NCBI GenBank assembly: GCA_964531785.1
Contig: CAZHFF010000001.1
Location: forward strand, 7,880-71,879
DNA: 64,000 nucleotides
DNA from: an uncultured Candidatus Saccharibacteria bacterium
GTDB lineage: Bacteria > Patescibacteriota > Minisyncoccia > Phycocordibacterales > UBA12088
Direction: 5' to 3'
Of the stretch, positions 15,700 to 31,285 are shown one piece after another. The notes below the pieces were generated by a model. The model made no database searches and was not told the origin of the DNA. It saw only the letters and a list, made by a program, of their open reading frames with translations. The translations under genes were made by a program, and so were the position numbers. Numbering within the stretch: the stretch's first letter is position 1; every line of letters starts with the position of its first letter.

Positions 15700-16164
15700 A
15701 TGGAAAAGGCAAGGGACCGTACGTGTCGGTCGGAACGTTCGGTGAGCGACCACCAGGCGAGTCTTCGGAGCGCCGGTCTTCGGGCGACCGCACAGCGTGT
15801 CGACATCCTCACAGCCCTCGAACACGCTGGTAGACCGCTCTCGCTCGAGCAGGTGCATGCGCGACTCCCGGGTCGGGTCGACCTATCGACCCTCTATCGG
15901 AACATGCGCGAGTTCTCGGAGGCGGGGTTGGTGCGGAGCGTCGACCTGCGGCATGGACATGCACACTATGAGCTTGTGCAGGGTGAGGAGCATCACCATC
16001 TAATATGCACGAGCTGTGGCCATGTCGAGGCGTTCACCCTACCGCTCTGCGACGACCTCGAACGTGTCGTGCTCAGGCGCGCGGTCTCGTTCGATTCGGT
16101 CATGGATCATGCGCTTGAGCTCTACGGTACGTGCGTGTCCTGTGCGGGTGGTGTGCAGCGTTAG
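15700..16164 (+). CDS. Fur family transcriptional regulator (likely Zur)
   Basis: LRATAQRVDILTAL..LSTLYRNMREFSEAGLV (winged helix), HHHLICTSCG and C-terminal CVSC (two CxxC pairs). Divergent from the ZIP transporter. Confidence 0.85.
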   Translation: MEKARDRTCRSERSVSDHQASLRSAGLRATAQRVDILTALEHAGRPLSLEQVHARLPGRVDLSTLYRNMREFSEAGLVRSVDLRHGHAHYELVQGEEHHHLICTSCGHVEAFTLPLCDDLERVVLRRAVSFDSVMDHALELYGTCVSCAGGVQR

Positions 16165-16177
16165 TAGTGCGTTCTGT

Positions 16178-16183
16178 TATACT
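16178..16183 (+). promoter_or_regulatory. -10-like hexamer TATACT 6 nt upstream of ATG 16190 (leaderless-type)
   Basis: Sequence ttcTGTTATACTggctgcATG. Confidence 0.45.
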
Positions 16184-16189
16184 GGCTGC

Positions 16190-17314: not shown

Positions 17315-17335
17315 CAGTAAGACCCACTTTGCGCT

Positions 17336-17740
17336 ATGAAAGCCTTCATCCATGAATTCAAATCGTTCGCGATGCGGGGGAACGTGGTCGACCTGGCGGT
17401 AGCGGTCGTGATTGGCGGCGCGTTCGGGAAGATCACGACGTCGCTTGTTGACAAGGTGCTCATGCCGCTCCTCAGCATGCTCACCGGCGGCATCGACCTT
17501 GCCCACCTCAGCTGGACCATTCGAGCGGCAGAAGAAGCGCGACCGGCGCTCGTCTTGGGGTACGGAGCGTTCCTCCAGAGCGTGGTCGATTTCCTCATCA
17601 TCGCGTTCGCGATCTTCATCGTCATGAAGCAGATGAACCGCTTCTTGAAGAAGGAGAAGGAAACGCCGTCCGAGCCACCGGTGCCAACGAAAGACCAGGA
17701 GCTCCTCATGGAGATACGTGACCTGCTCAAGAACAAGTAG
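17336..17740 (+). CDS. mscL: Large-conductance mechanosensitive channel
   Basis: MKAFIHEFKSFAMRGNVVDLAVAVVIGGAFGKI..FLQSVVDFLIIAFAIFIVMK. Confidence 0.95.
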   Translation: MKAFIHEFKSFAMRGNVVDLAVAVVIGGAFGKITTSLVDKVLMPLLSMLTGGIDLAHLSWTIRAAEEARPALVLGYGAFLQSVVDFLIIAFAIFIVMKQMNRFLKKEKETPSEPPVPTKDQELLMEIRDLLKNK

Positions 17741-17743
17741 CGC

Positions 17744-18541
17744 ATGGGCTCCGCACCACTTGAGCGAGCGCGTGAGGTGGAACGTGCGCTCGCTGCACAT
17801 GCTTCACCCAAGAAGGCAGCATCTTCCTCGTGGTTCTTTAAGACAGGACCAGGTCAGTACGGCGAGGGAGAGGTCTTCATCGGGGTGACGGTGCCCGAGC
17901 AGCGAAAGGTCGCCAAAGCGTTTTGCGGGCTCCCGCAGAGCGAGCTCGCAAAGCTCCTTAAGAGTCCGGTACACGAGCACCGGCTCACTGCGCTCCTCAT
18001 CCTCACCTACCAGGTCGAGCGTCTCGATCGGTCAGAGGCAGAGGTATGCAAGGAAAAGGGCAGAGCAAGATCGAGCGGCCGATCTCGCGACACGAAGGGA
18101 CTGGAAGGACTCGTGCGCTTCTACCTCGCACACCTTGACCGCGTGAACAACTGGGACCTGGTCGACCTATCGGCGCCGAGCCTGCTCGGGACCTGGTGCG
18201 TGCGAACGGGGACGTATCACAAGCTCTACACGTTTGCACGATCAAAAAACCTCTGGCACAAGCGTGTGGCCATCGTCGCGACCCTTGCGTGCATCCGTGC
18301 CGGCGACCTTTCGCATACGTTCGCGCTTGCTCGGATACTGCTTTGCGACCAGCACGATCTTATCCATAAAGCGGTCGGGTGGATGCTCCGTGAGGCGGGG
18401 AAGCGCGACCAGGCCGCCCTGCGACAGTTCCTGGCCGAGCATGGTTCGGACATGCCGCGCACCATGTTCCGGTATGCGATCGAGCGCTTCCCAAAGGAAG
18501 AGCGAGTGCGGTTACTTGCTGCGAGCAAAGGCCGGCCGTGA
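17744..18541 (+). CDS. DNA alkylation repair protein (AlkD-like HEAT-repeat family)
   Basis: WFFKTGPGQYGEGEVFIGVTVPEQRKVAK, NNWDLVDLSAP, LWHKRVAIVATL, HKAVGWMLREAGK. Confidence 0.85.
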   Translation: MGSAPLERAREVERALAAHASPKKAASSSWFFKTGPGQYGEGEVFIGVTVPEQRKVAKAFCGLPQSELAKLLKSPVHEHRLTALLILTYQVERLDRSEAEVCKEKGRARSSGRSRDTKGLEGLVRFYLAHLDRVNNWDLVDLSAPSLLGTWCVRTGTYHKLYTFARSKNLWHKRVAIVATLACIRAGDLSHTFALARILLCDQHDLIHKAVGWMLREAGKRDQAALRQFLAEHGSDMPRTMFRYAIERFPKEERVRLLAASKGRP

Positions 18542-18629
18542 GCCGAGGAGGGAACGGAGCACTAGGTTGTTTTCGTGTGGTACACTGAGCGTCTACTCGA
18601 TCACCACTATTCAGTAACCTCAACATGCT

Positions 18630-19331
18630 ATGAAGTACACGCTCATCGGAATAGGTTTGCTAGGTATGCTCGGTATCGGCTATGCCCTGTGGGACCCCGG
18701 GGACATTACTCTGACCGTCCCGCTGGAGCAAAGCGAAGCCCAGGCTAGCGACGAGGTCGATCGTGCAGTGGTCGGCGAGGGTACGTACCGTGTGCGTACG
18801 GGCGAGAGTACGGTGCGTTGGGCGGGTCAGAAACCGCTCATCAGCGGATACGTCAATGCCGGTTCGATCGGTATCAGTGAGGGATCGATACGAGTGGAAC
18901 GTGAAGCGGCGACCGGTTCGTTCACGATCGCCATGGACACGCTCTCGGTTTCCGAGACACCCACGAAACCCGGCCAGGAGTCAGCGCTCGAGGGTCATTT
19001 GAAGGGCGAACGATGGTTCAACGTCGAGGGTTTTCCGACCGCGACGTTCAGCATACTCGAGGTCACGCCACGTATCGACAGTGACACCACGTTCGTCTAC
19101 GATGTGCGCGGCGAGCTCACCTTGAAGGGCGAAACGGGAGAGCTGGTCTTTCCGGCGACCATATTCGAAGATGGCGAAGGGCTGCTTCGGGCACAGGCCG
19201 CGTTCGAGTTCGACAGGACCAAGTGGGGCATCACTGCCGGTTCCGGTTCGTTCTTCGACAACCTGGCCGACAACGCGATCGCTGATATGGTAGCGCTTAG
19301 CTTCTCGCTCGTCGCCGAACCTGTGGAGTAG
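18630..19331 (+). CDS. YceI family periplasmic/lipid-binding protein with N-terminal anchor
   Basis: VRWAGQKP.., HLKGERWFNVEGFPTATF, GELTLKGETGELVFPATI, FEFDRTKWGI. Confidence 0.85.
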   Translation: MKYTLIGIGLLGMLGIGYALWDPGDITLTVPLEQSEAQASDEVDRAVVGEGTYRVRTGESTVRWAGQKPLISGYVNAGSIGISEGSIRVEREAATGSFTIAMDTLSVSETPTKPGQESALEGHLKGERWFNVEGFPTATFSILEVTPRIDSDTTFVYDVRGELTLKGETGELVFPATIFEDGEGLLRAQAAFEFDRTKWGITAGSGSFFDNLADNAIADMVALSFSLVAEPVE

Positions 19332-19345: not shown

Positions 19346-19771
19346 CTACTCGAAGTCGATCTGGAAGTGGTACATCGCCATCGAGCACATGCCCTTGAGC
19401 GTACCCTGCGTCTTTTCGACCGGTACCGGGATCTCGACCGTGTCGGTCGGCTTGAGGTAGCTCTGGTACCCGAGGTCCGGTATGACGAGCGCGATGGAGC
19501 AATCGTAGGTGTTCTCGGTCTTCATGCGTATCACGGTCGGCACCCCGGCTGCCGCTTTGATCACACGCGGTGAATAGCCACCGCGCGCGGTTATGTCGAC
19601 GTACTGAACGTCGCCCTCACGGGTCGCGGTGCCGAACTCAACCACGCCCGGTCGCACGAACGGGCCGGCTTCATCGACGTCACGCCCCTTGCTGCCGAAG
19701 AGCACTGCACCGCCTATCACGGCAAGGCCCAGGATGAGCGCCAGGATCGTGTAACGGGTTTCTTTGGTCAT
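19346..19771 (-). CDS. Membrane-anchored cupredoxin-like domain protein (copper cluster)
   Basis: N-terminal TM YTILALILGLAVIGGAVLF. The domain ..GYSPRVIKAAAGVPTVIRMKTENTYDCSIALVIPDLG..LKGMCSMAMYHFQIDF parallels the C-terminus of the protein at 26367..27779. Confidence 0.7.
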   Translation of the reverse strand: MTKETRYTILALILGLAVIGGAVLFGSKGRDVDEAGPFVRPGVVEFGTATREGDVQYVDITARGGYSPRVIKAAAGVPTVIRMKTENTYDCSIALVIPDLGYQSYLKPTDTVEIPVPVEKTQGTLKGMCSMAMYHFQIDFE

Positions 19772-19774
19772 GAG

Positions 19775-20794
19775 CTAAAAGGTTAGGATCGGGCTGATAA
19801 TGCCGAATACCACCAGTGCACCGTAGAGGTTCGTGAGCGCAAAGAGGATCACGACGAGACCTGCGGTCTTGAAAAAGACGCCGCGGTATCTGCCTTTCGC
19901 CAGGTCGAGCGAGCCGAACGAGAGGAGTGCTAAGACCGGCAGCGTGCCGAGCGCGAACACGAGCATGGTGAGTGCGCCGGTCACCGCGCTTCCAGAGGAC
20001 AAGCTCATGACCTGCATCGACTGGGTAAAGCCGCAGGGCAGGAAGAACGTGAAGGCGCCGAGGAGTATCGGGGCAACACTCCCCGCACGCTCTGCCACAG
20101 CTGTGAGCCTTTCGGAGATGCTGCGAGGCAGCGTCCATGCGCGTACCTTTTTCGTGATATCAAGAAGGTGTATACCGAGGATGAGCATGACAAAGCTCGC
20201 GAGCGCACCTAAGACCGCGCTCCCATAGACCCCGATCTGCATGACCTCGCCGAGCGCACCGAGCAATCCTCCAAGCACGAAGAAGCCGGCCAAACGACCT
20301 GCATGAAAGAGGATCTGGGGTCGTGCGCCTGCATTGCTCTGCGCGTAGGTCGCACTGACCGAGAGTACGAGGCCCCCAACTACCGCAAGACAGGTCGAGA
20401 CAGAAGCGACGAGGCCGACCACGAGCGCGGTCGTGAGGGTTGCTTCGCTCGATCCGATGAGGGAGGTTATGCCGGCTCTGTGAAGGAGCACAAAGCCAAA
20501 CACAAGCAGAACGACGACCGGTAGTGCTGTGAGCCACTCGCTCCAGTTCGTCTGCGCAAGCGGAGGTGTCGCATGTACGGTATACCCGTGTGTCGAGATA
20601 AGGCCGGTCAACCGAGCACTGAGCGACTCCGCATCTACGTGGCGCTCTGTTGTAAGGGTGATCGTCTCGCTTGTGAGGGAAACGGAGACACTGCTTACGT
20701 CAGGCTCTTTTTGAAGCGTGGCCTCGATCAGGTGCTTACAGGCGCTACAGTGCGTGCCGGTAACGTAGAGGGTGTGCGTGCGGGTCTCGGTCAT
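19775..20794 (-). CDS. HMA (heavy-metal-associated) domain fused to a DsbD/CcdA/TauE-like polytopic membrane domain
   Basis: LYVTGTHCSACKHLIEATL (HMA CxxC), then ~7 TM segments with FFLPCGFTQSMQ. ATGA start/stop overlap with copA at 20791-20794. Confidence 0.8.
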   Translation of the reverse strand: MTETRTHTLYVTGTHCSACKHLIEATLQKEPDVSSVSVSLTSETITLTTERHVDAESLSARLTGLISTHGYTVHATPPLAQTNWSEWLTALPVVVLLVFGFVLLHRAGITSLIGSSEATLTTALVVGLVASVSTCLAVVGGLVLSVSATYAQSNAGARPQILFHAGRLAGFFVLGGLLGALGEVMQIGVYGSAVLGALASFVMLILGIHLLDITKKVRAWTLPRSISERLTAVAERAGSVAPILLGAFTFFLPCGFTQSMQVMSLSSGSAVTGALTMLVFALGTLPVLALLSFGSLDLAKGRYRGVFFKTAGLVVILFALTNLYGALVVFGIISPILTF

Positions 20795-23016
20795 AGGGTC
20801 GTTGCGCGCAAACGCAGGGAATTAGTAACGACCGATACGCTCGAAAGTGCCATGGCTGCACCCGCAAATGCAGGGGAGAGCATGATGCCGAGGGTGGGGT
20901 AGAACAGGCCCGCAGCAAGGGGGATGCCGAGGAGGTTGTAGATGAACGCCCAGAACAGGTTCTGCTTGACGGTGCGCATCGTCTTTTTTGCAAGCACGAC
21001 GGCAAGTACGAGCTTTCGTATCTCACCACGCAGGAGCGTCAGGTCGCTTGCCTCGATCGACACGTCGGTCCCGGTCGCCATTGCTACCGACACATCGGCG
21101 GCTGCAAGCGCCGGGGCATCGTTCACCCCGTCACCGACCATAGCCACACGCTTGCCTTTCGCCTGCTCTTGTTTTACCAGCTCGAGCTTGGTTTCCGGAT
21201 AGATGCCCGCATGGACCGTTTCGATCCCGACCGCATGCGCCACCGCTTGTGCGGCGCCCTGGTGGTCGCCGGTCGCGAGGATCACCCGGATGCCAAGCTT
21301 CTTAAGCGTGGCGACCGCGTCCTTGGCCCCGAGCTTGAGCGGGTCACCAAGGCCGAGCGTTGCCACATGGGTCGCGCCGCGCGCAACGACGACCGGCGTC
21401 TCCCCGGCCCGTGTCACGGCACCGATCGCGCTCGTGTTCAGTGCTACGCCCAGCTCTTCGAGGTACTCGATGCGACCGACCGCATAGGCAAAGCCGCCGA
21501 CCTCTCCGCGTATGCCCTTGCCCGGAACGGACAGAAGGTCCGTGACCGGTACCTCATCGATGTTCCGGTCACGCAGGTAGTGCACCACGGCTTCAGCGAG
21601 CGGATGCTCGGAACGTCGCTCGAGCGCATAGAGCGCACGCAAGAGATCCTCTTCGTCATGAATATGGAGGTTCCAGCTCTGGACCGTCGGTTTGCCCTCG
21701 GTCAAGGTCCCGGTCTTGTCGAGGATGATCGTATCGATCTTCGCGAGTGTTTCGATCGCTGCCGCGTTCTTCACAAGAACACCATGCCCGGCGCCCTTGC
21801 CGACCCCGACCATGATGGCGGTCGGGGTGGCGAGTCCCAGGGCACAGGGGCATGCGATAACGAGGACCGAGACGAATGCGACAAGCGCGTAGGGCAGTGC
21901 ACCGCCTACGGTTGCGCTACCGAACACGAGCCAGAGGAAGAACGCGGTCACGGCGATACCGAGCGCGATAGGCACGAATACGGCAGAAATGCGGTCGGCA
22001 AGCCGTTCGATGGGAGCCTTCGAGCCCTGTGCGTCGCTAACGAGCTGTACGATGCGCGCGAGGAGCGTGTCGCTCCCAATGCCGTCGACACGCATGAGGA
22101 ATGCTCCGGTCGTGTTCATCGTGCCGGCACGGACGGTGGATCCCGGCTCGCGGAACACGGGCACCGGCTCGCCGGTCAGCATGGATTCGTCGATGTTCGA
22201 GGTGCCCTCAAGCACCGTACCGTCGACTGGTATGCGCGAACCCGGCTTGATGACGACTGTGTCCCCCACAAGCACCTCACTGATCGGTCGGAGCGTCTCC
22301 TGTCCGTCGCGTATGACAAGTGCGCTCTTCTCCTGGAGCCCCACCAACTTCTTGAGCGCGTCTTTGGTGTGCGCCTTAGCACGGACCTCTAGGTACTTGC
22401 CGAGCGTGATGAGGCCGATCACCACGATGGTCGCGTCGAAGTACGTGACGCTCGTGTCGAGGTAGGGAGCAAGCGGCACGGCGAACACGGTGACGATGAG
22501 GCTGTAGAGGTATGCCGCGCCGGTACCAAGACCGACGAGCGTGTCCATGTTCGCCTTTCGGTAGCGCGCGAACCGGGCAACGCCAGCAAGGTACCGACGT
22601 CCGACCACGAAGAGCATATAGGTTGCAGCTATGAGGAGCACGAGACGCATCGGCATCATGAGCATTTCCGGCACGCGGGGGATGAGCCGCAGGGTCTCGC
22701 CAAGTATCTCCCAACCCATGCCGATCGTGGCGATGGCGACGAGCGGCATACCGGTTACGGTATGCAGGTAGAGCTGCCGCTCTTCCTCGCTCGTCTGTTC
22801 CTGGACCTCTGTGCGTGTGCTGAGGGAATACCCGAGCGGTACGAGCACCTCGGAGAGTGCGGCGAGCGAGGTCTTGTCGGTGTCGAACTCGATCTGTGCC
22901 GTCTCGGAACCGAAACTTGCCGTAGCGCTCGTCACACCCGGCACCTTACGAAGCGTGCTCTCGATGACGCTTGCGCAAGATGCGCAGTGCATGCCATTTA
23001 TTGTGTAGGTTGTCAT
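20791..23016 (-). CDS. copA: Copper-translocating P1B-type ATPase (host-like GC)
   Basis: MTTYTINGMHCASCASVIE (HMA), TGEP, CPCALGLATP, DKTGTLT, GDGVNDAPAL. I prefer ATG 23016 over the track's GTG 23025. Confidence 0.95.
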   Translation of the reverse strand: MTTYTINGMHCASCASVIESTLRKVPGVTSATASFGSETAQIEFDTDKTSLAALSEVLVPLGYSLSTRTEVQEQTSEEERQLYLHTVTGMPLVAIATIGMGWEILGETLRLIPRVPEMLMMPMRLVLLIAATYMLFVVGRRYLAGVARFARYRKANMDTLVGLGTGAAYLYSLIVTVFAVPLAPYLDTSVTYFDATIVVIGLITLGKYLEVRAKAHTKDALKKLVGLQEKSALVIRDGQETLRPISEVLVGDTVVIKPGSRIPVDGTVLEGTSNIDESMLTGEPVPVFREPGSTVRAGTMNTTGAFLMRVDGIGSDTLLARIVQLVSDAQGSKAPIERLADRISAVFVPIALGIAVTAFFLWLVFGSATVGGALPYALVAFVSVLVIACPCALGLATPTAIMVGVGKGAGHGVLVKNAAAIETLAKIDTIILDKTGTLTEGKPTVQSWNLHIHDEEDLLRALYALERRSEHPLAEAVVHYLRDRNIDEVPVTDLLSVPGKGIRGEVGGFAYAVGRIEYLEELGVALNTSAIGAVTRAGETPVVVARGATHVATLGLGDPLKLGAKDAVATLKKLGIRVILATGDHQGAAQAVAHAVGIETVHAGIYPETKLELVKQEQAKGKRVAMVGDGVNDAPALAAADVSVAMATGTDVSIEASDLTLLRGEIRKLVLAVVLAKKTMRTVKQNLFWAFIYNLLGIPLAAGLFYPTLGIMLSPAFAGAAMALSSVSVVTNSLRLRATTL

Positions 23017-23104
23017 TTGATGCACGTTTTACTGATGCACCTTCAGTATCTCCTCATGGGTCATTCCTAATGACTTCGGTGCCTGTTATTGTACTAAGCG
23101 TACA

Positions 23105-23329
23105 CTACTCCGCTCTAAACGCATACCCGTGTTGGGAGAGTTGCTTCGTGAACAGCTCCGCAAGTTGAGGAGCATTTTCGTCTCGGTCAGCCTTAACGAC
23201 CGCCTTTTGGAGTGCCTCGTCCACACTGACCGATCTAACGCCGGGCAGCTCTGAAAGTTCTTCCGTGATCAGGATACTGCACGACGTGCAGTGCATGCCG
23301 GTAACGGTAAAAGTGTGTGTTTGAGCCAT
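23105..23329 (-). CDS. copZ: CopZ-like copper chaperone (single HMA domain)
   Basis: MAQTHTFTVTGMHCTSCSILITEEL.., 74 aa. Confidence 0.85.
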   Translation of the reverse strand: MAQTHTFTVTGMHCTSCSILITEELSELPGVRSVSVDEALQKAVVKADRDENAPQLAELFTKQLSQHGYAFRAE

Positions 23330-23366
23330 GGTGGTTATGTAAGAGTTAGTGTTTTTATACAGTTAC

Positions 23367-25679
23367 TTAACGTGTAGAAGCGCGTTTTTTGCTGAGCCTC
23401 AACGTTTTCAACCGCAGTGAATTCGTAAGGACCGACACGCTCGATCCGGCCATAGCAAACCCTGCGAAGACCGGGTTGAGGAGTATTCCCCAGAACGGGT
23501 ACAGTACGCCTGCAGCGATAGGGATACCAATGAGGTTGTATATGAACGCCCAGAACAGGTTCTGCTTCACGGTGCGCATGGTTCGTCGAGCAAGAATAAG
23601 TGCCTGTGGCAGTTTGGCTATGTCGCCGCCTAAAAGTGCTATGCCCGCTGACTCGATCGCAATGTCCGTGCCGGTTGCCATGGCTATGCCCACATCCGCC
23701 TGTACCAGAGCCGGCGCATCATTGATACCATCACCCACCATCGCGACTTTTTTGCCGCTCTGCTGTAATTCGACGATCTTATCTGCTTTTTCGCTCGGCA
23801 AAACCTCACTGATCACGGTATCGATGCCAACGGAAGTCGCAATGAATTGTGCGGCACGTGCATTGTCTCCGGTAAGCATGACCGTAACGATCTTCTGTTT
23901 TTTGAGCAATGCTATCGTTTCGTGCGCCCCCTCTTTAACGGTATCGCTGATCGCTACAAGTGCAATGGGTGTTTCGTTTTGCACGATCACCACAACCGTC
24001 TTGCCTTCGCTTTCGAGACGTTCTGTCCCCTCAGGTTTACTTGCCAGCACTTGTGGCTTAACGACAGAAACACGGTTACCATTTATCGACCCTTCAACAC
24101 CGACACCTTCCAACGCACGGAAATCAAGCACATCCATGAGACCAGCTGTGCCTCCCTGACGTGCTACTATCGCTTGCGCTAATGGGTGTTCTGAGTGCCG
24201 CTCAAGACTGGCCGCCAGTTTAAGTGCCTCCGCTTCGTTCGTTGAGCCGAGTGTGACGATATCGGTTACGGAAGGTGTACCATTCGTTATGGTCCCCGTC
24301 TTATCGAATACGATCGTCGATACGGTGCTTAGCGTTTGCAGACTCTCTGCATCTTTGATGAGCATGCCGTGCTCCGCCCCTTTTCCAACACCTACAATGA
24401 TAGCTGTTGGTGTCGCAAGGCCTAGCGCGCAAGGACAAGCGATCACAAGGATGCCCACGAATGAAAGGATTCCGTAGGTGAACGCGAGCGTAAAGCCAAG
24501 ATAACTCGTGCCGACGGTGAGCCACACGCCAAATGTCAAAACAGCAATGACCAGGACGATGGGTACGAACACGCTCGAGATGCGGTCTGCAAGTGCCTGT
24601 ATCGGTGCCCGTGAACCCTGTGCACGCTCCACCATCTTGATTATTTGAGAGAGCATCGTGTCAGCTCCCACTTTGGTCGCGCGGAATCGTATGCTTCCTT
24701 GTTTGTTCAATGTGGACCCTACGACCAAGTCGCCAGGCTTCTTGTCAACGGGAACTGGTTCGCCGGTGATCATTGCCTCGTCGATCGATGTGGTACCCTC
24801 CACGATCTCACCATCGACCGGTACTTTTGCGCCCGGCTTGACTATGACGATATCATCAAGCACCACATCGGAGATAGGTACCTCGACCTCTTCACCGTTA
24901 CGGATCACCAGTGCGGTCTTAGCCTGTAATTCCATGAGCTTCTCGATCGCTTCACCGGTTTTCAGTTTTGATCGTGCTTCAAGGTATTTGCCAAGCGTGA
25001 CAAAACCGATGACCACGATCGTAACGTCAAAATACACATACTCAGGCAGGCCAAGAAGTTCTCGTACTGGTGGAAATAAGACGATGATGGAACTATAGAG
25101 GTACGCTGTGAACGTTCCTATGCCAATGAGCGTGTCCATGTTTGCGACCCGATACTGCAAGAAACGGAGCACTCCCTGAAGGAATGGTTGACCGATCCAG
25201 AACATAACGATGCTAGCTAATATGAACATGATCATGTTCAGAAGCTCCATAGGTATGGGGAGTGTGGGAAGAGAAGGCAGCACTTTTGCGAGGATGTCCC
25301 ACATCATGATCGCAAAGATCAACAAGGAGAGCGGAAGTACGAACTCAACCTTTCCTTTTTCTTTCGCGAGTTCCTTGAGCTTTGCTGCTTTGGTCTGTGA
25401 TAGGCCCGTATGCTCGCTGTGGTCGTTTACAGCCATTGCCGCATGTGCCTCATTGTTATGTTGACGCTGCGCATCGGGGGTGAGGCTATACCCAAGCGGT
25501 GCGATAGCTTCGTTCAGGACAGTATCAGCAAGATACTGTCCGCTAAAGGTAACCGTAGCTTTTTCGTTTGCGAAGTTTACCTCGGCGTCGCTAATGCCGT
25601 CGAGCTTTTTGAGACGTTTCGTGATTATTGCAGAGCAACTTGCGCAATGCATGCCCTGTACTGTGTAGGTATGTGTCAT
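23367..25679 (-). CDS. copA: Copper-translocating P1B-type ATPase (lower-GC paralog)
   Basis: MTHTYTVQGMHCASCSAIITKRL (HMA), TGEP, CPCALGLATP, DKTGTIT, GDGINDAPAL. Confidence 0.95.
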   Translation of the reverse strand: MTHTYTVQGMHCASCSAIITKRLKKLDGISDAEVNFANEKATVTFSGQYLADTVLNEAIAPLGYSLTPDAQRQHNNEAHAAMAVNDHSEHTGLSQTKAAKLKELAKEKGKVEFVLPLSLLIFAIMMWDILAKVLPSLPTLPIPMELLNMIMFILASIVMFWIGQPFLQGVLRFLQYRVANMDTLIGIGTFTAYLYSSIIVLFPPVRELLGLPEYVYFDVTIVVIGFVTLGKYLEARSKLKTGEAIEKLMELQAKTALVIRNGEEVEVPISDVVLDDIVIVKPGAKVPVDGEIVEGTTSIDEAMITGEPVPVDKKPGDLVVGSTLNKQGSIRFRATKVGADTMLSQIIKMVERAQGSRAPIQALADRISSVFVPIVLVIAVLTFGVWLTVGTSYLGFTLAFTYGILSFVGILVIACPCALGLATPTAIIVGVGKGAEHGMLIKDAESLQTLSTVSTIVFDKTGTITNGTPSVTDIVTLGSTNEAEALKLAASLERHSEHPLAQAIVARQGGTAGLMDVLDFRALEGVGVEGSINGNRVSVVKPQVLASKPEGTERLESEGKTVVVIVQNETPIALVAISDTVKEGAHETIALLKKQKIVTVMLTGDNARAAQFIATSVGIDTVISEVLPSEKADKIVELQQSGKKVAMVGDGINDAPALVQADVGIAMATGTDIAIESAGIALLGGDIAKLPQALILARRTMRTVKQNLFWAFIYNLIGIPIAAGVLYPFWGILLNPVFAGFAMAGSSVSVLTNSLRLKTLRLSKKRASTR

Positions 25680-25690
25680 AGAGTCTATGC

Positions 25691-26248
25691 TTATCCATTA
25701 AACCAATCATTCCTCCAAGACCTTAGCGTCACCAGGTCTCGTGCAAGCGCTTCTTCGAGTGCACGTGCATCTTGCCTCACCTTTGCTCGAACAGGACTTG
25801 AAGCAACACTCTGCACAATGGCAAGTGTTGCTTCTTGGTGCGCTATGAGGGCGTCCAGATACCGTACGTCGAACGCACCATCCTCGTCTGTGCCAAGATC
25901 GGGTATCTTCGGCTCACGTACTTGCTGAGTATCATCGAACCAGTCACGTTTGAGCACAAGAATATCGGCCACGCGTTGTGTTTCGGCGCGTATGATGTTC
26001 GCTGCAAACTCATGCAATTCTGGTCGATGCGTTTCCCGTACCTGTCGAGCGAGCCCGATTGCTATTTTGCTCTGGGTGATCTGTGCGTCAAAATATGCCG
26101 CCTCGACCTGCTCGGAGGCCGATTCGTTCACGTTCATACTTTTTTCTGGTCCGGCATATGCGGGTGCGAGATACGCCCCAACACCGATGCCGATAGTCAA
26201 GGTCATGATGCTAATGGCGAGGGACAGTGGGAGTGAGAGCTTGATCAT
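25691..26248 (-). CDS. DUF305 family protein (four-helix, copper-resistance associated), secreted
   Basis: Signal/TM at the N-terminus. Duplicated helical motif ..FDAQITQSKIAIGLA.. and ..DVRYLDALIAHQEATLAIVQ.., as in DUF305. Confidence 0.7.
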   Translation of the reverse strand: MIKLSLPLSLAISIMTLTIGIGVGAYLAPAYAGPEKSMNVNESASEQVEAAYFDAQITQSKIAIGLARQVRETHRPELHEFAANIIRAETQRVADILVLKRDWFDDTQQVREPKIPDLGTDEDGAFDVRYLDALIAHQEATLAIVQSVASSPVRAKVRQDARALEEALARDLVTLRSWRNDWFNG

Positions 26249-26366
26249 ACGTACGTAGTTTATAAGTTCTTAATTACCGTTTTTATCGTGCAACAGCTTA
26301 TGTCTGATGCTTGTAACGGACCATGTCGCAAGCTTAGACCAAGTATGTTGGGTTCGTGGACAATGG

Positions 26367-27779
26367 TTACGGAATCACCGTAAATGTGCCCGAGTACATA
26401 CCCATGGAGCAGGTGAACCTGATCGTGCCGATCTTGGTCGGTGTGAACTCGATCACATTTTCCCCCTCTTTGAGCCCTTGTCTAATACCGTAGGTAGGCA
26501 TTGCAATGAACGCGGCGCAGCTGTATTGCGTCTTCGAGGTTATGATCCACCTGACCGGTACGTTGTTCTTGATCGTAAACTGGTTCGGTCTATACCCACC
26601 TCCTAGTTGGTCCATACGGACGATCTGTACGCCGTTCTGCTGCTCTGCAACAGCAGTATCATTATTTCCTTTTCGGCTTTGGGAAGTGCCAGTCCTGCCG
26701 GTGTCGTCACCAGCTTCACTCGATCCGAAACTGAAGATCGCTGGCGCCGGAATACCGGCGAGTGTGAGTCCGGTCTGAAGGTTGAACAGGCCGAATACGA
26801 TGACCGCAAGGCCGGTAAATTTGAAGAAGTAGCGTGCAAACTGACCTTTGACGAATGACGTAAGACCGCCGATACCGAGAAGTCCAGGAGTTGTACCCAG
26901 CGCAAATAGGCCCATGATGAGTGCTCCCTCGGTGAAGCTTCCCGTCGACACCGCGTAGATCTGCATTGCTTGGGTGAAGCCGCAAGGAAGGAAGAAGGTC
27001 GCCGCTCCGGTAAGAATGGCTCCCCGATGGCTATATTCTTTCCGATCATCCTCTGCGCGTATCAGTCGCATACTCAATGACTTAGGCAGGAGCAGAGCCG
27101 CTTTGCTTATCCCTGGCATAATGCCAATGAGTCGAATACCAAGGATGAACATTACCACGCCAGCAGCGGCCACAAAGAGGCCCATACCCGAGCCGGAAAG
27201 ATTTATCGCTCCACCAACAGTGCCGATAACGCCACCGAGGACTGTATAGGAGACCAAGCGACCCAGGTTAAAGAATAGGTTCGGACGAAACTTCTGCATG
27301 ATGGTCGCCTCAGGGTGTAGTTTGGCGTGCTGTGCGGTTATGCCAAGGACAAGTCCGCCCACGAGCGCCATACAGGTGGAGACACCGGCAACGAGACCTA
27401 TAACGAATACCAGTGAGAGTGCAGGTGTTGAGCCAAAGTCGACTGAGCGGTCCATAAGGCCAGACCCAGCGAGGAAAAGCCAGAGCATGATAAGGATGCT
27501 CGCTGCGATCAAAAGCTCAAAGTAATCTGCAGGGTCTTTCGAGAAGAAGGTACGCCCATGTCGTGTTTCCGCTACCGCGTAGCCTGCTTCTCTCACAGCT
27601 TCCGCAAGTTCCTCATGCGATGGAGGTGTTTTGCTATACAGTACTTTTGCTAGGCCAGTAGCATGGTTGACCGAGACCTTGAGAACGCCTTCAACTTTGC
27701 TTATTTTTTTCTCCAGTAGTATTTCGCAGGATTTGCAGTGCATTCCGGAGATCGGAACGGTAAGTGTTCTTTGTTCCAT
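26367..27779 (-). CDS. Tripartite fusion: HMA domain - DsbD/CcdA/TauE-like membrane domain - C-terminal cupredoxin-like domain
   Basis: LTVPISGMHCKSCEILLEKK (HMA), FFLPCGFTQAMQ (membrane core), C-terminal ..GYRPNQFTIKNNVPVRWIITSKTQYSCAAFIAMPTYG..RFTCSMGMYSGTFTVIP. Confidence 0.8.
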   Translation of the reverse strand: MEQRTLTVPISGMHCKSCEILLEKKISKVEGVLKVSVNHATGLAKVLYSKTPPSHEELAEAVREAGYAVAETRHGRTFFSKDPADYFELLIAASILIMLWLFLAGSGLMDRSVDFGSTPALSLVFVIGLVAGVSTCMALVGGLVLGITAQHAKLHPEATIMQKFRPNLFFNLGRLVSYTVLGGVIGTVGGAINLSGSGMGLFVAAAGVVMFILGIRLIGIMPGISKAALLLPKSLSMRLIRAEDDRKEYSHRGAILTGAATFFLPCGFTQAMQIYAVSTGSFTEGALIMGLFALGTTPGLLGIGGLTSFVKGQFARYFFKFTGLAVIVFGLFNLQTGLTLAGIPAPAIFSFGSSEAGDDTGRTGTSQSRKGNNDTAVAEQQNGVQIVRMDQLGGGYRPNQFTIKNNVPVRWIITSKTQYSCAAFIAMPTYGIRQGLKEGENVIEFTPTKIGTIRFTCSMGMYSGTFTVIP

Positions 27780-27895
27780 AGGTGTAAGGATTAAGTAATG
27801 TTTCTATGCAGGACCGTGCGTCTAATGCTGTGTTCGTCAGAACAGACAGCACAGTACCTGCCCGCGCGTGCGAGTTGAACTGCTTAGAGCTAGCT

Positions 27896-28339
27896 TCAAC
27901 GATAGAGACAGTACACCTTCGGATGGATGATGCCGCTTGAGAACGCATCATGAAGTGGCCTACTGGGGACGATATGCATTCTGTGCACGTATTGCAGGGC
28001 AATACGTGGCAGCATGGATCGTTTCCATGGTATGCGAAATCGAAATGTTGGTTGCATTGAAAAACGCGCCAGAATTACGAGTAGTATGAGGTACGTAAAT
28101 AGCGCAAACGGAACAACAGCGAGGTCTGCAAACCATTGCCAGGCCGAGTCTATCCACTTGAATGGGCAAATAACCCCTTCGTTATGGAATGACATTGTGC
28201 AGGTCAGGATATCGCCCTCTGCGTGGCTCGTGGACATGAACTGAAAAACACCAAAAAGCTGGAGGCTGACCAGTAGCATAAAAGCCGCCATCATCAAGGT
28301 TCGTGCAAGCTGTTTATGAAAATACGACAAATGGTACAT
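27896..28339 (-). CDS. Hypothetical membrane protein in the cop operon
   Basis: Two TM segments (MMAAFMLLVSLQLFGVF, VVPFALFTYLILLVILA) and a Cys/His-containing loop HAEGDILTCTMSFHNEGVICPF. I recognise no family. Confidence 0.5.
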   Translation of the reverse strand: MYHLSYFHKQLARTLMMAAFMLLVSLQLFGVFQFMSTSHAEGDILTCTMSFHNEGVICPFKWIDSAWQWFADLAVVPFALFTYLILLVILARFSMQPTFRFRIPWKRSMLPRIALQYVHRMHIVPSRPLHDAFSSGIIHPKVYCLYR

Positions 28340-28385
28340 GAAATGTTGTTATCACCTACGCATGCGTGTTCTCGAACGCATCGCC

Positions 28386-28655
28386 TTAACGTCGTTTTAG
28401 CTGATACACTTTTAATATTTCCGCCTGCGCTTTGCGTACCTTGCCACCCTGTATCTGATCGATGACACAGTGCGAGAGGTGGTCTTCAAGCAAGAGGTCC
28501 TCAAGGTTCGAGAGCGCCTGCTTAACGGCGCTCGTTTGCGTAATGATGTCGATGCAGTAGGTGCCCTCCTCGATCATGCGCTGGAGGCCGCGCACCTGTC
28601 CCTCGATGAGTCTAAGCCGCCGCACGAGCTTCGGCCTACCGGTGTCGTGTTTCAT
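28386..28655 (-). CDS. csoR: CsoR/RcnR family copper-sensing transcriptional repressor
   Basis: LVRRLRLIEGQVRGLQRMIEEGTYCIDIITQTSAVKQALSNLEDLLLEDHLSHCV (C-H-C ligand pattern). I prefer start ATG 28655 because the longer ORF would cover its own operator. Confidence 0.9.
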   Translation of the reverse strand: MKHDTGRPKLVRRLRLIEGQVRGLQRMIEEGTYCIDIITQTSAVKQALSNLEDLLLEDHLSHCVIDQIQGGKVRKAQAEILKVYQLKRR

Positions 28656-28662
28656 AGCTTGC

Positions 28663-28691
28663 AGCCTATACCCCCTAGGGGGTATAGTCAA
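28663..28691 (-). promoter_or_regulatory. csoR/cop promoter with an embedded CsoR operator
   Basis: Perfect 20-bp palindrome TATACCCCCTAGGGGGTATA (28667-28686). It lies between TTGACT (-35, 28691-28686, minus strand) and TAGGCT (-10, 28668-28663) with 17-nt spacing. The ATG is 7 nt after the -10. Confidence 0.8.
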
Positions 28692-28784
28692 CCACAGCCT
28701 GGGGATAGTGGAAGATGATCTGGAAGTGACAAAGCCAGCTCTGCATAATAGAAAACACCCGGAGCCATTGCCCCAGGTGCCCGC

Positions 28785-28898
28785 CTAGTCTTTTCGCATG
28801 AGCTCTCGCAGGAGGGTCTTGACCATGTTTCGCCCCAGCACAAGCATCAGCACAGCTGGCATGAGCACCAGCAACAGTACATACAGGTTGATCTCCAT
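28785..28898 (-). CDS. Possible 37-aa hydrophobic micro-protein
   Basis: MEINLYVLLLVLMPAVLMLVLGRNMVKTLLRELMRKD. GAGGA lies 13 nt upstream and a strong promoter ~40 nt upstream. It is very short, so confidence is low. Confidence 0.3.
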   Translation of the reverse strand: MEINLYVLLLVLMPAVLMLVLGRNMVKTLLRELMRKD

Positions 28899-28938
28899 TT
28901 TTCCGCGTGTCCTCAAGCTAAAGCGAAGCCTGTAATTA

Positions 28939-28967
28939 ATTATACCATGCATATGAATAAGCAACAA
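28939..28967 (-). promoter_or_regulatory. Near-consensus extended -10 sigma70 promoter (TTGTTG-17-TGGTATAAT region), minus strand
   Basis: Minus strand reads TTGTTGcttattcatatgcaTGGTATAAT. Confidence 0.55.
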
Positions 28968-28984
28968 GTACCAGAAATAAAGAG

Positions 28985-29013
28985 TTGACACATGCTAATA
29001 GATATTGTAGATT
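28985..29013 (+). promoter_or_regulatory. Near-consensus sigma70 promoter (TTGACA-17-TAGATT), plus strand, back-to-back with the previous one
   Basis: Sequence agagTTGACAcatgctaatagatattgTAGATTc. Confidence 0.5.
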
Positions 29014-29300
29014 CATACGCGTGGTCGCATGACCATGAGGTACGAAAGGAGAAAGCTTTGTCGATCCGTTGTCAAATTCAACCACCGAACGTCGTGCTCG
29101 AGGACCTGTTGGCTGCGCTCGGGACAGGCAAGAGACTCTCTGGGTATTTTGAGACCGATCAGGTCACGATCGGACCCATGGACCATGAGCCACCGCAACG
29201 GCTCGGCGATTTCAGCCGCATCTCGGCACATATACTAAGTGAACGTCTTGTTGCGCTGCCTCAGAATGCGCGGTACCTGGTCATCACAGAGATCCGGTAG
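28992..29300 (+). CDS. Hypothetical protein; the true start may be TTG 29058
   Basis: Track ORF of 102 aa. ATG 28992 lies inside the predicted promoter, whereas TTG 29058 is preceded by AAGGAG (29046-29051). An intrinsic terminator follows. I recognise no family. Confidence 0.4.
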   Translation: MLIDIVDSYAWSHDHEVRKEKALSIRCQIQPPNVVLEDLLAALGTGKRLSGYFETDQVTIGPMDHEPPQRLGDFSRISAHILSERLVALPQNARYLVITEIR

Positions 29301-29324
29301 ATCGGTTCGAAAACGGTAACCCTA

Positions 29325-29354
29325 GAGCTCGGCACGTGCGCCGAGCTCCTTTTT
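29325..29354 (+). terminator. Rho-independent terminator
   Basis: GAGCTCGGC-acgtgc-GCCGAGCTC followed by CTTTTTAT. Confidence 0.75.
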
Positions 29355-29439
29355 ATCGGTGTACTGTCGATGGTTCGTGCTTGCTTAGCGAGCGGATGGT
29401 CTCGGGGTTGCGGCGTCTGCCATGGTACACTGGGTGTCT

Positions 29440-30357
29440 ATGGAGCACGCGCTTGCCATTACCGACCTCAAGAAGACGTACGAGAACGGTACGGTGGCGC
29501 TCTCCGGTATCGACCTTACTGTCGCGAAGGGAGACTTCTTTGCGCTCCTCGGTCCTAACGGTGCCGGTAAGTCAACGACGATCGGCATCATCACCGGTCT
29601 TACGAAAAAGTCCTCCGGAACGGTCGAGGTGTTCGGCACGTCGATCGATGCGGACCACGACAAGGCAAAGACGTACATCGGGCTCGTGCCGCAGGAGATG
29701 AACTTCAATATCTTCGAGAAGGTGGTCGACATCGTCTGTACCCAGGGCGGGTACTATGGTTTGCCAAGGAAGCTCGCGCGCGAGCGTGCGGAGAAGTACC
29801 TGACCGCGCTCGGTCTCTGGGAGAAGCATAACGACAAGAGTCAAACGCTCTCCGGCGGCATGAAACGCCGCCTCATGATAGCCCGGGCACTCGTCCATGA
29901 GCCGGAGCTCCTGATCCTCGACGAGCCGACCGCGGGAGTCGATGTCGAACTCCGGCGTGGTATGTACGACTTTTTGCGCGAACTCACGAAAGCGGGAAAG
30001 ACCATCATCCTCACCACGCACTACCTGGAGGAAGCGGAAGAGCTAGCGAAGGAGCTCGCGATCATCGATACAGGGAAGATCGTCGCGAAGGGCAAGGTCA
30101 AAGAGCTCTTGGCGGGCATGGACACGGCGGTCTATGTGCTTGACCTGGGGCGAGCGGTTACGGAAGGTCAGCTTGCGGTCATAAGCACGTACCGCCCACT
30201 GGCGCGTGATGCTGATACGGTCGAGATCACGGCCACTAAAGCATTGCCGCTCGGTAAGGCTGTGTCGCTGCTCGAGAGGTCGGGCATTCCGGTCGTGAGC
30301 ATCCGGCCGAAGGGGAACAGGCTGGAAGAGCTGTTCGTGAAGCTCACGAAAGGGTAA
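29440..30357 (+). CDS. ABC transporter ATP-binding protein (YadG/DrrA-like, ABC-2 type)
   Basis: Walker A GPNGAGKST, signature LSGGMKRRL, Walker B LLILDEPTAGVD. ATG 29440 lies 8 nt after TACACT (29426-29431). Confidence 0.9.
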   Translation: MEHALAITDLKKTYENGTVALSGIDLTVAKGDFFALLGPNGAGKSTTIGIITGLTKKSSGTVEVFGTSIDADHDKAKTYIGLVPQEMNFNIFEKVVDIVCTQGGYYGLPRKLARERAEKYLTALGLWEKHNDKSQTLSGGMKRRLMIARALVHEPELLILDEPTAGVDVELRRGMYDFLRELTKAGKTIILTTHYLEEAEELAKELAIIDTGKIVAKGKVKELLAGMDTAVYVLDLGRAVTEGQLAVISTYRPLARDADTVEITATKALPLGKAVSLLERSGIPVVSIRPKGNRLEELFVKLTKG

Positions 30358-30514
30358 TGTATCGTAAGCACCAGATAACAAATAGCAAGTTCCAAATAAA
30401 TCACAAATCCCTCATCTCAAACAGAACCACACTCAAGATCAATTTTATTTGGAGCATGCAATTTTGAATTTGGTGCCGAGCAAAACGACGATATCGAGTT
30501 ACACACCTCACCGT

Positions 30515-31285
30515 ATGACCCAACGAACGTACATCGCTTTCCAAACCATTGTCCGCAAAGAAGTGGTGCGATTCATGCGCATCTGGACCCAGACGCTCTT
30601 GCCGCCGGTCATCACCGCGACCCTCTATTTTCTTGTGTTCGGCGCGTTCCTGGGCGAGCGCATCGGCGTGGTCGAAGGGGTGCCCTACATCGCGTTCATC
30701 GTGCCGGGTCTCGTCATGATGGCGGTCATCACGAATAGCTATAGCAACGTCGCATCGAGCTTCTTTGGCGCGAAGTTCATGAAGAACCTCGAGGAGCTCA
30801 TGGTCTCGCCCGTACCGCACGCGGTCGTGATCGCCGGCTTCGTCGTGGGCGGTGCGCTGAGGGGGCTCCTGACCGGTGTGCTCTCGCTTATGGTCGCGCT
30901 CTTTTTCACCCAGCTTCCTGTTGTGCACCTTGGCGTCATCCTGCTCTTCTTTGTGCTCACCTCGATCCTCTTTTCGCTCGGGGGCCTCATCAATGGGGTG
31001 TATGCCAAGACCTTTGATAGTGTGATGATCTTTCCCACGTTCGTGCTCACACCGCTCATCTACCTCGGCGGGGTGTTCTATCCGATCTCCGTCCTGCCTT
31101 CGTTCTGGCAGACAGTGTCCCTGGCGAACCCGATACTCTACATGATCAATGGTTTTCGCTATGGCTTTTTAGGTACCTCTGACATGAACGTCGTGCTCTC
31201 GCTTTCGGTGCTTGTGACGTTCATCGGTATTGCGCTCGTCTGGGTCAAGTACCTCTTCAGCAATGGCCGCGGCTTGCGCGCATAA
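30515..31285 (+). CDS. ABC-2 type transporter permease (YadH-like)
   Basis: MTQRTYIAFQTIVRKEVVRFMRIWTQTLLPPVITATLYFLVFG is collinear with the YadH-type N-terminus. Six TM segments. Confidence 0.85.
   Translation: MTQRTYIAFQTIVRKEVVRFMRIWTQTLLPPVITATLYFLVFGAFLGERIGVVEGVPYIAFIVPGLVMMAVITNSYSNVASSFFGAKFMKNLEELMVSPVPHAVVIAGFVVGGALRGLLTGVLSLMVALFFTQLPVVHLGVILLFFVLTSILFSLGGLINGVYAKTFDSVMIFPTFVLTPLIYLGGVFYPISVLPSFWQTVSLANPILYMINGFRYGFLGTSDMNVVLSLSVLVTFIGIALVWVKYLFSNGRGLRA

Follow-up and report, generated by a model that had tools for sequence, protein, structure and literature searches.

Which of two adjoining copper-resistance gene sets owns the regulator that stands at their head? The question is raised by a stretch of 64,000 nt from the genome of an uncultured Candidatus Saccharibacteria bacterium (contig CAZHFF010000001.1; this whole stretch is called the window in the following, and all positions refer to it). 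Nine intact open reading frames (ORFs), all on the minus strand, form a copper-resistance array at 19346–28655. It begins with csoR, coding for a predicted copper-sensing repressor, followed by five genes of lower GC content and by a second set of three genes, headed by copA2. The initial annotation had taken csoR and the low-GC genes for an island at 23030–29320, inserted upstream of the resident copA operon, so that the native genes would have been captured by an imported CsoR. Our results point to the reverse. The cassette lies at about 23055–28421 inside the operon, between csoR and copA2, and judged by the codon usage of csoR, its homologues and a relic of its 3' end it is the foreign genes that would have come under the resident CsoR. 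We put at roughly 80% the probability that a native four-gene CsoR operon was split between its repressor and pump genes by a 5.4-kb horizontally acquired second copper set.

Gene content and composition

All nine ORFs were found at the coordinates annotated before, and every domain call is backed by Pfam or NCBIfam. In the direction of transcription, csoR (28386–28655; PF02583, 92.8 bits at a cutoff of 22.8) is followed by the genes for a 147-aa membrane protein with two transmembrane (TM) segments and without a match in Pfam or NCBIfam (27896–28339), a 470-aa fusion of HMA, DsbD_2 and Cupredoxin_1 domains according to Pfam (26367–27779), a DUF305 protein (25691–26248; PF03713, 32.1 bits at a cutoff of 27), the 770-aa CopA1 (23367–25679) and the 74-aa copper chaperone CopZ (23105–23329; HMA PF00403, 53 bits). 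The second set consists of copA2 (20791–23016; 741 or 744 aa), the gene for a 339-aa HMA-DsbD_2 membrane protein assigned by Pfam (19775–20794), which overlaps copA2 by 4 nt, and that for a 141-aa protein predicted to be a membrane-anchored, CupA-like cupredoxin (19346–19771). The Cupredoxin_1 score of the latter, 26.7 bits, is just below the cutoff of 27 (27.8 in the fusion). Both pumps are P1B-1 type Cu(I) ATPases with E1-E2_ATPase, Hydrolase and HMA domains.

The two sets differ clearly in composition. The low-GC cassette on the minus strand (about 5.37 kb, 23055–28421, with breakpoints uncertain within a repeat of about 30 nt) has a GC content of 0.510, compared with 0.601 in the remaining window; per kb, the values are 0.495–0.529 over 23001–29000 and 0.59–0.64 to either side, and the left edge, at about 23000, is abrupt. 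The GC content at third codon positions (GC3) is 0.51–0.60 in the five genes from the membrane protein to copZ, and 0.71–0.81 in copA2, the HMA-DsbD and cupredoxin genes and the flanking genes (host genes overall 0.70–0.83). In chunks of 88 codons, GC3 amounts to 0.723 ± 0.054 for the host (n = 159) and to 0.545 ± 0.061 for the cassette (n = 16). The absence of such a shift had been set beforehand as a refutation of foreign origin; as computed, the shift is large. The four GC counts made by hand in the initial annotation (31, 24, 19 and 35 of 60) are all exact, and its statement that the first six genes are lower in GC holds from the membrane protein gene to copZ, but not for csoR, with a GC3 of 0.70.

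Within csoR, codons 1–78 (28422–28655) have a GC3 of 0.78, while the last 11 codons have a GC3 of 0.18 and a GC content of 0.278. Synonymous codon usage was compared further as a log-likelihood ratio (LLR) of host versus cassette, again in 88-codon chunks. With +0.074, csoR resembles the host chunks (+0.100 ± 0.050) and not the cassette chunks (-0.076 ± 0.053), none of which (0/16) reached this value. For copZ, an LLR of -0.078 was obtained, which is cassette-like, and copA2 has host codon usage.

The repressor and its operator

CsoR proteins sense Cu(I) through an x-C-H-C ligand fingerprint, corresponding to Cys36, His61 and Cys65 in the numbering of the Mycobacterium tuberculosis protein. 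They repress by occupying the core promoter and are released on Cu(I) binding. The best matches of the csoR product in the Protein Data Bank (PDB) are the CsoRs 4adz (1.8e-18) and 4m1p, with whose Cys/His/Cys its residues C34, H59 and C63 align (YCIDI and H-x3-C). It is a predicted Cu(I)-sensing repressor with C34, H59 and C63 as ligands.

As candidate operator a perfect 20-bp palindrome, TATACCCCCTAGGGGGTATA, is located at 28667–28686, 11 nt upstream of the csoR start codon. It is a G/C-tract pseudo-palindrome that overlaps the predicted promoter, of the type of the Staphylococcus aureus CsoR boxes, and its 16-nt core occurs once in the window even when up to 3 mismatches are allowed. In the promoter/operator region (28663–28691, minus strand), a -35-like TTGACT (28691–28686) overlaps the left arm of the palindrome, which occupies the 17-nt spacer (28686–28667) before a -10-like TAGGCT (28668–28663). 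Both boxes were read by eye, and the consensus promoter scan gave no score there. Because the ATG follows 7 nt beyond the -10-like box, the csoR transcript is probably nearly leaderless. The same palindrome (TACCCC…GGGGTA) is present 16–25 nt upstream of csoR in six of the loci fetched for comparison, which are designated by L and a number (L166, L167, L169, L170, L171 and L172), as well as in many other relatives, and the csoR promoters of relatives show the same layout with better -10 boxes.

Relatives of the two gene sets

Both CopA1 and CopA2 exceed the cutoff of 397 for TIGR01511 (ATPase-IB1_Cu), with 592.3 and 572.7 bits, and both have CPC in TM4, N-x6-YN-x4-P in TM5 and M-x2-SS in TM6 in addition to DKTGT, TGE, GDGxND and SEHP. 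The two sets also share one domain repertoire (HMA, DsbD_2, cupredoxin and P1B-1 ATPase), as would be expected if one cop set had been duplicated in tandem within this genome and had then diverged. However, identity is only 45% between CopA1 and CopA2, 37% between the DsbD modules and 28% between the cupredoxin modules. The sets are also arranged in a different order, have the cupredoxin fused in one case and separate in the other, and are 0.18 apart in GC3. A neighbour-joining tree with simple distance correction and 200 bootstraps was calculated for 146 CopA sequences from the loci fetched with CopA2. In this tree CopA1 belongs to a clade of nine members (96.5% bootstrap support) and is joined there by L163 and L164 with 99.5%, whereas the partners of CopA2 are L021 and L101 (87.5%). 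In none of the 200 replicates did CopA1 and CopA2 come out as sisters. In a large protein collection the closest relatives of CopA1 are 70, 68 and 68% identical, with many at 60–65%, and CopA2 belongs to a separate family of 17 relatives at 61–68%, after which identity falls to 53%. The initial annotation had named two CopA copies that are each other's closest relatives and share one codon usage as the mark of a simple duplication. What was found instead is 45% identity between copies that are never sisters, each nearer to proteins of other genomes (61–70%), and by this the duplication is practically ruled out.

Scanning contigs from genomes and metagenomes with CopA2 gave identities of at most 52% among the matches listed and no genome with an empty site. 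Homologues of CopA1 and CopA2 that bear a name come almost always from Patescibacteria, Paceibacterota, Nomurabacteria, Saccharibacteria or similar groups, and the host is probably a bacterium of the candidate phyla radiation with an unusually high GC content.

The genomic context of the CopA2 family is informative with regard to the regulator. In 6 out of 6 such contexts (the same six loci as above) csoR is located directly upstream of copA, separated by a 1-nt gap or overlapping by 4 nt in five of them and at a distance of 92 nt in L172. Four of the six (L166, L170, L171 and L172) show exactly the order csoR, copA, HMA-DsbD gene and gene for a cupredoxin of about 140 aa, and the HMA-DsbD gene that follows copA in L166, L167, L170, L171 and L172 (55–66% identity) has the same 4-nt overlap. 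The typical arrangement of the resident lineage is copA followed by split HMA-DsbD and cupredoxin genes. All four products diverge from these loci to a similar degree: CsoR 66–78%, CopA2 61–67%, HMA-DsbD 55–66% and the cupredoxin 57–70% identity. The cassette is absent from all six, and the flanking genes differ in each. The full array, which if shared by relatives would have counted as a refutation in the initial annotation, is not shared by these relatives of the CopA2 family. Two of the loci have peculiarities: in L170 (7229–8247) gene calling splits the HMA-DsbD gene into two ORFs that overlap (192 and 160 aa), possibly due to a frameshift, a pseudogene or a sequencing error, and in L169 (13527–20889) neither a DsbD nor a cupredoxin gene accompanies csoR and copA, which are situated at a distance of 2.6 kb from a type IV secretion cluster (TrbC, VirB4, TrbL, VirB8, CagX, TrbI).

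The CsoR sequences show the same affiliation. The best matches of the window CsoR (66–78%) are the CsoRs adjoining CopA2-type genes in the six relatives. Over 56 loci, similarity to the window CsoR follows similarity to CopA2 (Spearman 0.63) more than similarity to CopA1 (0.34), and the CsoRs beside the closest relatives of CopA1 are very distant (L164 and L165, distance 1.4–1.7) or absent (L163). The cassette genes have counterparts elsewhere: the order small membrane gene, fusion, copA is found in L163 at 62–68% identity and without csoR, and the fusion stands upstream of copA also in L102 and L103. With the shift in GC and GC3, the distinct relatives of the two CopA proteins and the absence of the cassette from the relatives, the earlier view of the low-GC genes as a horizontally acquired second cop set is well supported.

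A relic of csoR beside copA2

The last codons of csoR (28386–28421), which read EILKVYQLKRR before the stop codon, are AT-rich and cassette-like, and the drop in GC3 from 0.78 to 0.18 falls exactly at the start of a repeat (28422–28393). Its second copy is located 5.4 kb downstream. There, the 88-nt spacer between copZ and copA2 holds GGAGATACTGAAGGTGCATCAG-TAAAACG (23053–23025, minus strand), a relic of the original csoR 3' end that codes for …EEILKVHQ and a stop, has lost 1 nt and adjoins copA2. Aligned with the live csoR end, 24 of 30 nt agree, a score matched by 2 of 2000 shuffles. The motif EI[LIV]KVxQ is found at just two places when all 64 kb are translated in six frames, namely in the relic and at the C-terminus of the live CsoR (chance expectation 0.0008; present in 0 of 100 shuffles). 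The codons of the relic are GC-rich and host-like (gag, ctg, aag). Furthermore, 15 nt separate its "cag" from the copA2 ATG; adding the deleted base gives 16 nt, the distance found in L166 and L169. The relic is also part of a potential mini-ORF, MTHEEILKVHQ and stop (ATG-ACC-CAT-GAG-GAG-…-TAA, 23028–23063, minus strand), which ends 12 nt before the copA2 ATG. That its translation partly replaces the lost coupling between csoR and copA2 would be pure speculation.

The initial annotation reported neither integrase nor transposase nor flanking direct repeats. The first two are indeed lacking in and beside the cassette, where no tRNA gene, Rfam match or IS-like terminal inverted repeat was found either, but one degenerate direct repeat of about 30 nt is present in the form of the two csoR ends (28422–28393 and 23053–23025). 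Gapless repeat finding passed over it owing to the 1-nt gap and yielded no other repeats than those coding for GMHCxxC in the four HMA domains, which share a short repeat (family D1, 64–83% identity over 36 nt). Measured by the usual criteria for genomic islands, deviant composition and patchy distribution are found, whereas integrase, tRNA, att sites and terminal repeats are not.

The source of the window is a metagenome-assembled genome (MAG), in which a low-GC fragment from another member of the population might have been joined by mistake, with the repeat shared by the four HMA domains as a conceivable point of exchange. Yet both junctions fall outside the HMA repeats; the left one lies within the continuous reading frame of csoR and the right one bears the csoR relic. 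In addition, two independent contigs from the Logan assembly of run SRR9016294 agree with the window at 100% identity; one of them (L082) covers both compositional junctions together with their flanks, although this assembly possibly derives from the same reads as the MAG. Because of these contigs the arrangement is no artefact of a single assembly, and a chimera is very improbable.

Insertion model

The insertion that we propose would have proceeded as follows. The ancestor would have possessed the lineage-typical operon of csoR, copA2, HMA-DsbD_2 gene and CupA-like cupredoxin gene, autoregulated by CsoR and with csoR adjoining copA. A segment of about 5.37 kb (about 28421–23055) would then have integrated at the last 30 nt or so of csoR, donated by a relative of lower GC content, probably a different Patescibacterium of the CopA1/L163 type. 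With the incoming DNA a homologous 3' end of csoR would have arrived, by which the live gene is now completed, and the original 3' end would have been moved 5.4 kb downstream, where it still adjoins copA2 and decays. As the route of integration we infer either recombination that was facilitated by homology and had one illegitimate end, or a circular intermediate that entered by a Campbell-type single crossover. Since the C-terminus EILKVY(K/R/Q)LKRK is conserved throughout this CsoR clade, a donor locus with the order csoR', membrane gene, fusion, DUF305, copA1, copZ is plausible. If the model is true, close relatives would show csoR adjoining copA2 and ending in the GC-rich …EEILKVYQLKRK before the stop codon.

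How does the initial reading, a complete island including csoR and operator (23030–29320) upstream of a regulator-less copA2 operon that came under foreign CsoR control by read-through, compare with this? The position of csoR at the head of the low-GC stretch speaks for it. So does the GC content of 0.42–0.53 over about 400 nt upstream of csoR, and a small ORF there (orf102, 28992–29300, plus strand) has cassette-like codons. But codons 1–78 of csoR show host usage, the best CsoR matches stand beside CopA2-type genes, and with an adjoining csoR in all six CopA2-family operons compared a resident without csoR would be atypical. Moreover, the relic adjoins copA2, which would require that a resident csoR had been deleted except for its last 8 codons, and AT-rich intergenic DNA is ordinary in this host (for instance GC 0.43 at 30300–30499). 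The earlier observation of a single operator in the window stands, but host codon usage, CopA2-linked homologues, synteny and the 3' scar are four independent lines because of which csoR and its operator are to be regarded as resident and not imported. An island that carried its own csoR is accordingly improbable.

Several results nevertheless weigh against an insertion into a resident operon. The relic and the donor-derived 3' end comprise about 30 nt, the latter 11 codons, and in a cross-species comparison (blastn-short) with the csoR 3' ends of relatives the relic matched 11/11 and 15/17 nt, level with chance matches. No genome near enough to reveal an empty site was found, identity to the host operon reaching no more than 61–78% in its best relatives. 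The trees were calculated by neighbour joining rather than maximum likelihood, and in the CsoR tree the major clade reaches a bootstrap of 57%. L030, a locus of the CopA1 clade, has a "typical" CsoR that is 65% identical to that of the window, because of which the donor could have had a similar csoR. The ABC-2 transporter of L163 is 62–65% identical to the host-GC ABC genes of the window, and L163 may simply be a moderately related genome rather than the donor lineage. Upstream of the csoR promoter, GC is low also at 28700–29320, and orf102 has an LLR of -0.047. Finally, two spacers within the cassette, of 116 and 118 nt, could hold promoters or attenuators, as could a strongly structured element at 27775–27900, which takes in the 116-nt spacer from the membrane gene to the fusion and folds with -40.2 kcal/mol (z = -2.6; 3 of 200 shuffles).

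In a further-reading version of the insertion model, the csoR 3' end would be a recurrent landing pad by homology for promoter-less copper cassettes among Patescibacteria, independent of integrases, and the two-TM protein together with the HMA-DsbD_2-CupA-like module would constitute a new, radiation-specific extracytoplasmic copper system. We regard this as quite unlikely. If true, such cassettes would be wired at once into the resident copper-sensing circuit, and could be exchanged through homology-facilitated or Campbell-type recombination.

Expression of the array

The earlier suggestion that the tandem arrangement permits read-through is consistent with the sequence of the junctions. In the spacers between csoR and the membrane gene (46 nt) and between copZ and copA2 (88 nt) no terminator-like hairpin was found, and their folding was no better than that of shuffled sequences. 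Because no terminator is predicted at either junction, a single copper-inducible transcript of nine genes is the simplest expectation, and a plausible one. The resident promoter, with the operator between its -35 and -10 boxes, would head all nine genes. At low Cu(I), CsoR would sit on the palindrome; binding of Cu(I) to C34, H59 and C63 would release it from the DNA, and transcription would run through the cassette into copA2. From this we infer one copper-inducible unit that would provide two P1B-1 pumps, the CopZ chaperone and two membrane copper-handling modules.

The same structure permits a different outcome. The insertion might have been polar or uncoupling, with the cassette having its own promoter or promoters and the copA2 set being either independent of CsoR, from a promoter at the 3' end of the cassette, or poorly expressed. 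The tight coupling of csoR and copA in relatives, through an overlap or 1-nt gap, was lost through the insertion; a Shine-Dalgarno sequence is not clearly recognizable ahead of the copA2 ATG, the window has a single operator, and the long spacers with their structured element fit this possibility as well. On the other hand, the copZ-copA2 spacer yielded neither promoter- nor terminator-like sites beyond chance. Consensus scanning as a whole was at chance level, with 7 promoter-like sites (6.4 expected) and 11 terminator-like sites (9.1 expected). Because copA2 and the HMA-DsbD and cupredoxin genes are intact, with catalytic motifs and host codon usage kept, the resident genes appear to be still in use and under purifying selection. 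On balance we hold uncoupling to be unlikely.

The structured spacer itself contains a long, stable hairpin (approximately 27862–27808, minus strand) that is not followed by a U-tract. The element at 27775–27900 may serve for attenuation, as a site of processing or in the stability of the RNA.

Accessory copper proteins

Besides pumps and chaperone, the array codes for less well characterized proteins. The 147-aa protein has a conserved motif C-x10-C-x-M-x4-H-x3-W and a C-terminal AFSxGIxHPK tail. A word-index search found only the protein itself, whereas an exhaustive HMMER search returned 23 distant homologues. These define a family of small two-TM proteins (128–154 aa) without Pfam or NCBIfam model, with invariant C47 and C58 and nearly invariant M60, H65 and W69 (CPFMxH…C-x-M…H-x3-W) and the tail RPLQEAFSxGILHPKLF. 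In 15 other cop loci of Patescibacteria type its gene adjoins copA, on either side and always on the same strand (L163 at 2009–2401, and L002, L005, L011, L015, L019, L025, L083, L084, L090, L091, L093, L094, L095 and L167). It is a candidate copper-binding membrane protein.

The fusion protein shares 62–63% identity with its counterpart located upstream of copA in L163, but only 37% with the resident HMA-DsbD protein. DsbD_2 (PF13386) is recognized in both, with 109.9 and 108.5 bits, and with one Cys in each of two hydrophobic segments: Cys136 and Cys266 in the TM segments of the fusion, Cys135 and Cys254 in those of the resident protein. A sequence search found no solved homologue for these DsbD_2 proteins. 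The CupA-like part of the fusion contains C421...C457-S-M-G-M, and the resident cupredoxin, with one TM segment at residues 8–26, contains the ligand pattern C91...C129-S-M-A-M. The only PDB matches of the cupredoxin are CupA of Streptococcus pneumoniae (2mry/4f2e, E 4.6e-4) and the CopA N-terminal domain, with the Cys and C-x-M-x-M aligned. By crude hydropathy the fusion has one TM segment plus about six after its cytoplasmic HMA domain, and this count of about seven weakly suggests that the fused cupredoxin is outside the cell.

The DUF305 protein begins with a hydrophobic segment and shows a weak match (E 0.002) to the solved CopM structure 5fej. Since it has only 3 His and 3 Met, copper binding by Met and His in the manner of CopM is doubtful. 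The pairing of DUF305 with copA recurs in L010, L018, L030, L033 and L165. CopZ belongs to the class of stand-alone HMA proteins of about 70 aa, with the M-x-C-x-x-C motif as GMHCTSC. The accessory proteins may act in the handling of Cu(I) at the membrane or in thiol protection. As candidates for experimental work, the membrane family with Cys, Met and His and the module of HMA-DsbD_2 and CupA-like cupredoxin recommend themselves, both recurring in cop operons of Patescibacteria.

Genomic neighbourhood

Downstream of the operon, 14851–19331 is a neighbourhood of metal- and stress-related genes. It comprises a ZIP transporter (14851–15648, minus strand), a Fur-family regulator according to the Logan gene call (about 15700–16164, plus strand), YibE/F (16190–17314, plus strand), MscL (17336–17740), a DNA_alkylation protein (17744–18541) and YceI (18630–19331), which is convergent with the cupredoxin gene, the stop codons being 14 nt apart. 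YceI is found near the cop operon also in L167 (62% identity) and L011.

On the other side, the low-GC stretch at 28700–29420 (GC 0.42–0.53) contains a 37-aa hydrophobic ORF (28898–28785, minus strand) followed by a terminator-like hairpin with a 13-bp stem (28782–28753), and orf102, coding for 102 aa and followed by a strong terminator-like hairpin at 29325–29348. For orf102, neither a homologue in any fetched locus nor a Pfam or NCBIfam match was found. The stretch may be a second small insertion or ordinary AT-rich intergenic DNA. Divergent from csoR there follows an ABC-2 pair of host GC, consisting of an ATPase and an ABC2_membrane protein (29422–31285, plus strand). Its homologous pair in L163 (8582–10274) lies 2.5 kb downstream of the CopA1-like gene, and the level of identity is that of the cassette genes to L163; this shared pair could reflect either general relatedness of the genomes or a functional tie to copper loci.

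Farther away, two giant adjacent ORFs of 3345 and 1769 aa occupy 36268–51669 (plus strand). Positions 1–6556 of the window have an intermediate GC3 (0.51–0.66, compared with 0.70–0.83 further in) and code for a DUF1428 protein, a NUDIX protein, a 700-aa PAS-GAF-HisKA-HATPase-receiver hybrid kinase and a SpoU methylase. These left 6.5 kb or so may be another compositionally distinct segment.

Comparison with known copper systems

Canonical cop operons under CsoR control are known from M. tuberculosis (cso), Bacillus subtilis (csoR-copZA) and Streptomyces lividans, with CsoR structures such as 2hh7, 4adz and 4m1p. The array shares with them a PF02583 protein with C-H-C ligands, a G/C-tract operator over the promoter, a CopA of type P1B-1 and CopZ. 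In contrast, csoR comes first here, is predicted to be autoregulated and in this lineage translationally adjoins copA, HMA-DsbD_2 and CupA-like modules are added, and two pump sets stand in one array.

In S. pneumoniae, CupA is a membrane-anchored Cu(I) chaperone of cupredoxin fold, encoded in the operon copY-cupA-copA. The resident cupredoxin resembles it in its single N-terminal TM anchor, in the predicted cupredoxin-like domain with aligned Cys and C-x-M-x-M (2mry/4f2e, 4f2f), and in the location of its gene beside copA. However, the similarity is weak, and the pneumococcal CopA has a cupredoxin N-domain, whereas both CopA proteins here have classical HMA N-domains. Here the cupredoxin has an HMA-DsbD_2 membrane protein as its partner or is joined to one in a fusion, and it may face outward. 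With CopM of Synechocystis the DUF305 protein has the fold signature and the copper-operon context in common, but the similarity is very weak and the few His and Met residues set it apart.

The combination of HMA and DsbD_2 has been met before. COG2836 proteins with these domains are predicted members of the CsoR meta-regulon of gut Firmicutes, without an assigned function (PMC4938975), and they show the same tie to CsoR and CopA as the proteins of the window (PMC4938975). Neither an association with a cupredoxin, be it as partner or in a fusion, nor the Patescibacteria context is described in that study (PMC4938975).

The closest parallel to the insertion is copXL (copBL) of S. aureus USA300, located on ACME or COMER elements and repressed by the CsoR of the core genome (PMC5947656). 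In both cases a second P1B ATPase was acquired with one or more accessory copper proteins by a genome that has a CsoR-controlled copA, and the acquired genes would here, too, be under the resident CsoR, through operators of the ATACC...GGGTAT type (PMC5947656). However, the acquired S. aureus operon is carried by a mobile element at a different genomic site, is read from a promoter of its own, has a separate CsoR box, and codes for the P1B-3-type pump CopX and the lipoprotein CopL (PMC5947656). Both pumps of the window are P1B-1. In the window, the genes are located inside the resident operon behind a single operator and no mobile-element genes accompany them; the scar marks the csoR 3' end as the site of recombination.

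If the insertion model is correct, genes dropped between a resident repressor gene and its target inherit copper-responsive control and need no regulator of their own, a regulator that heads a low-GC block need not be part of that block, and an uncultured bacterium with a reduced genome can double its copper-efflux capacity without recognisable mobile-element machinery, the scar being retained. The array is a clean case of resistance stacking and no new kind of system, its main components all belonging to known families. For acquired copper genes controlled by a core CsoR, S. aureus is a documented precedent, and the value of the locus described here is that of a well-resolved example rather than of a new principle.

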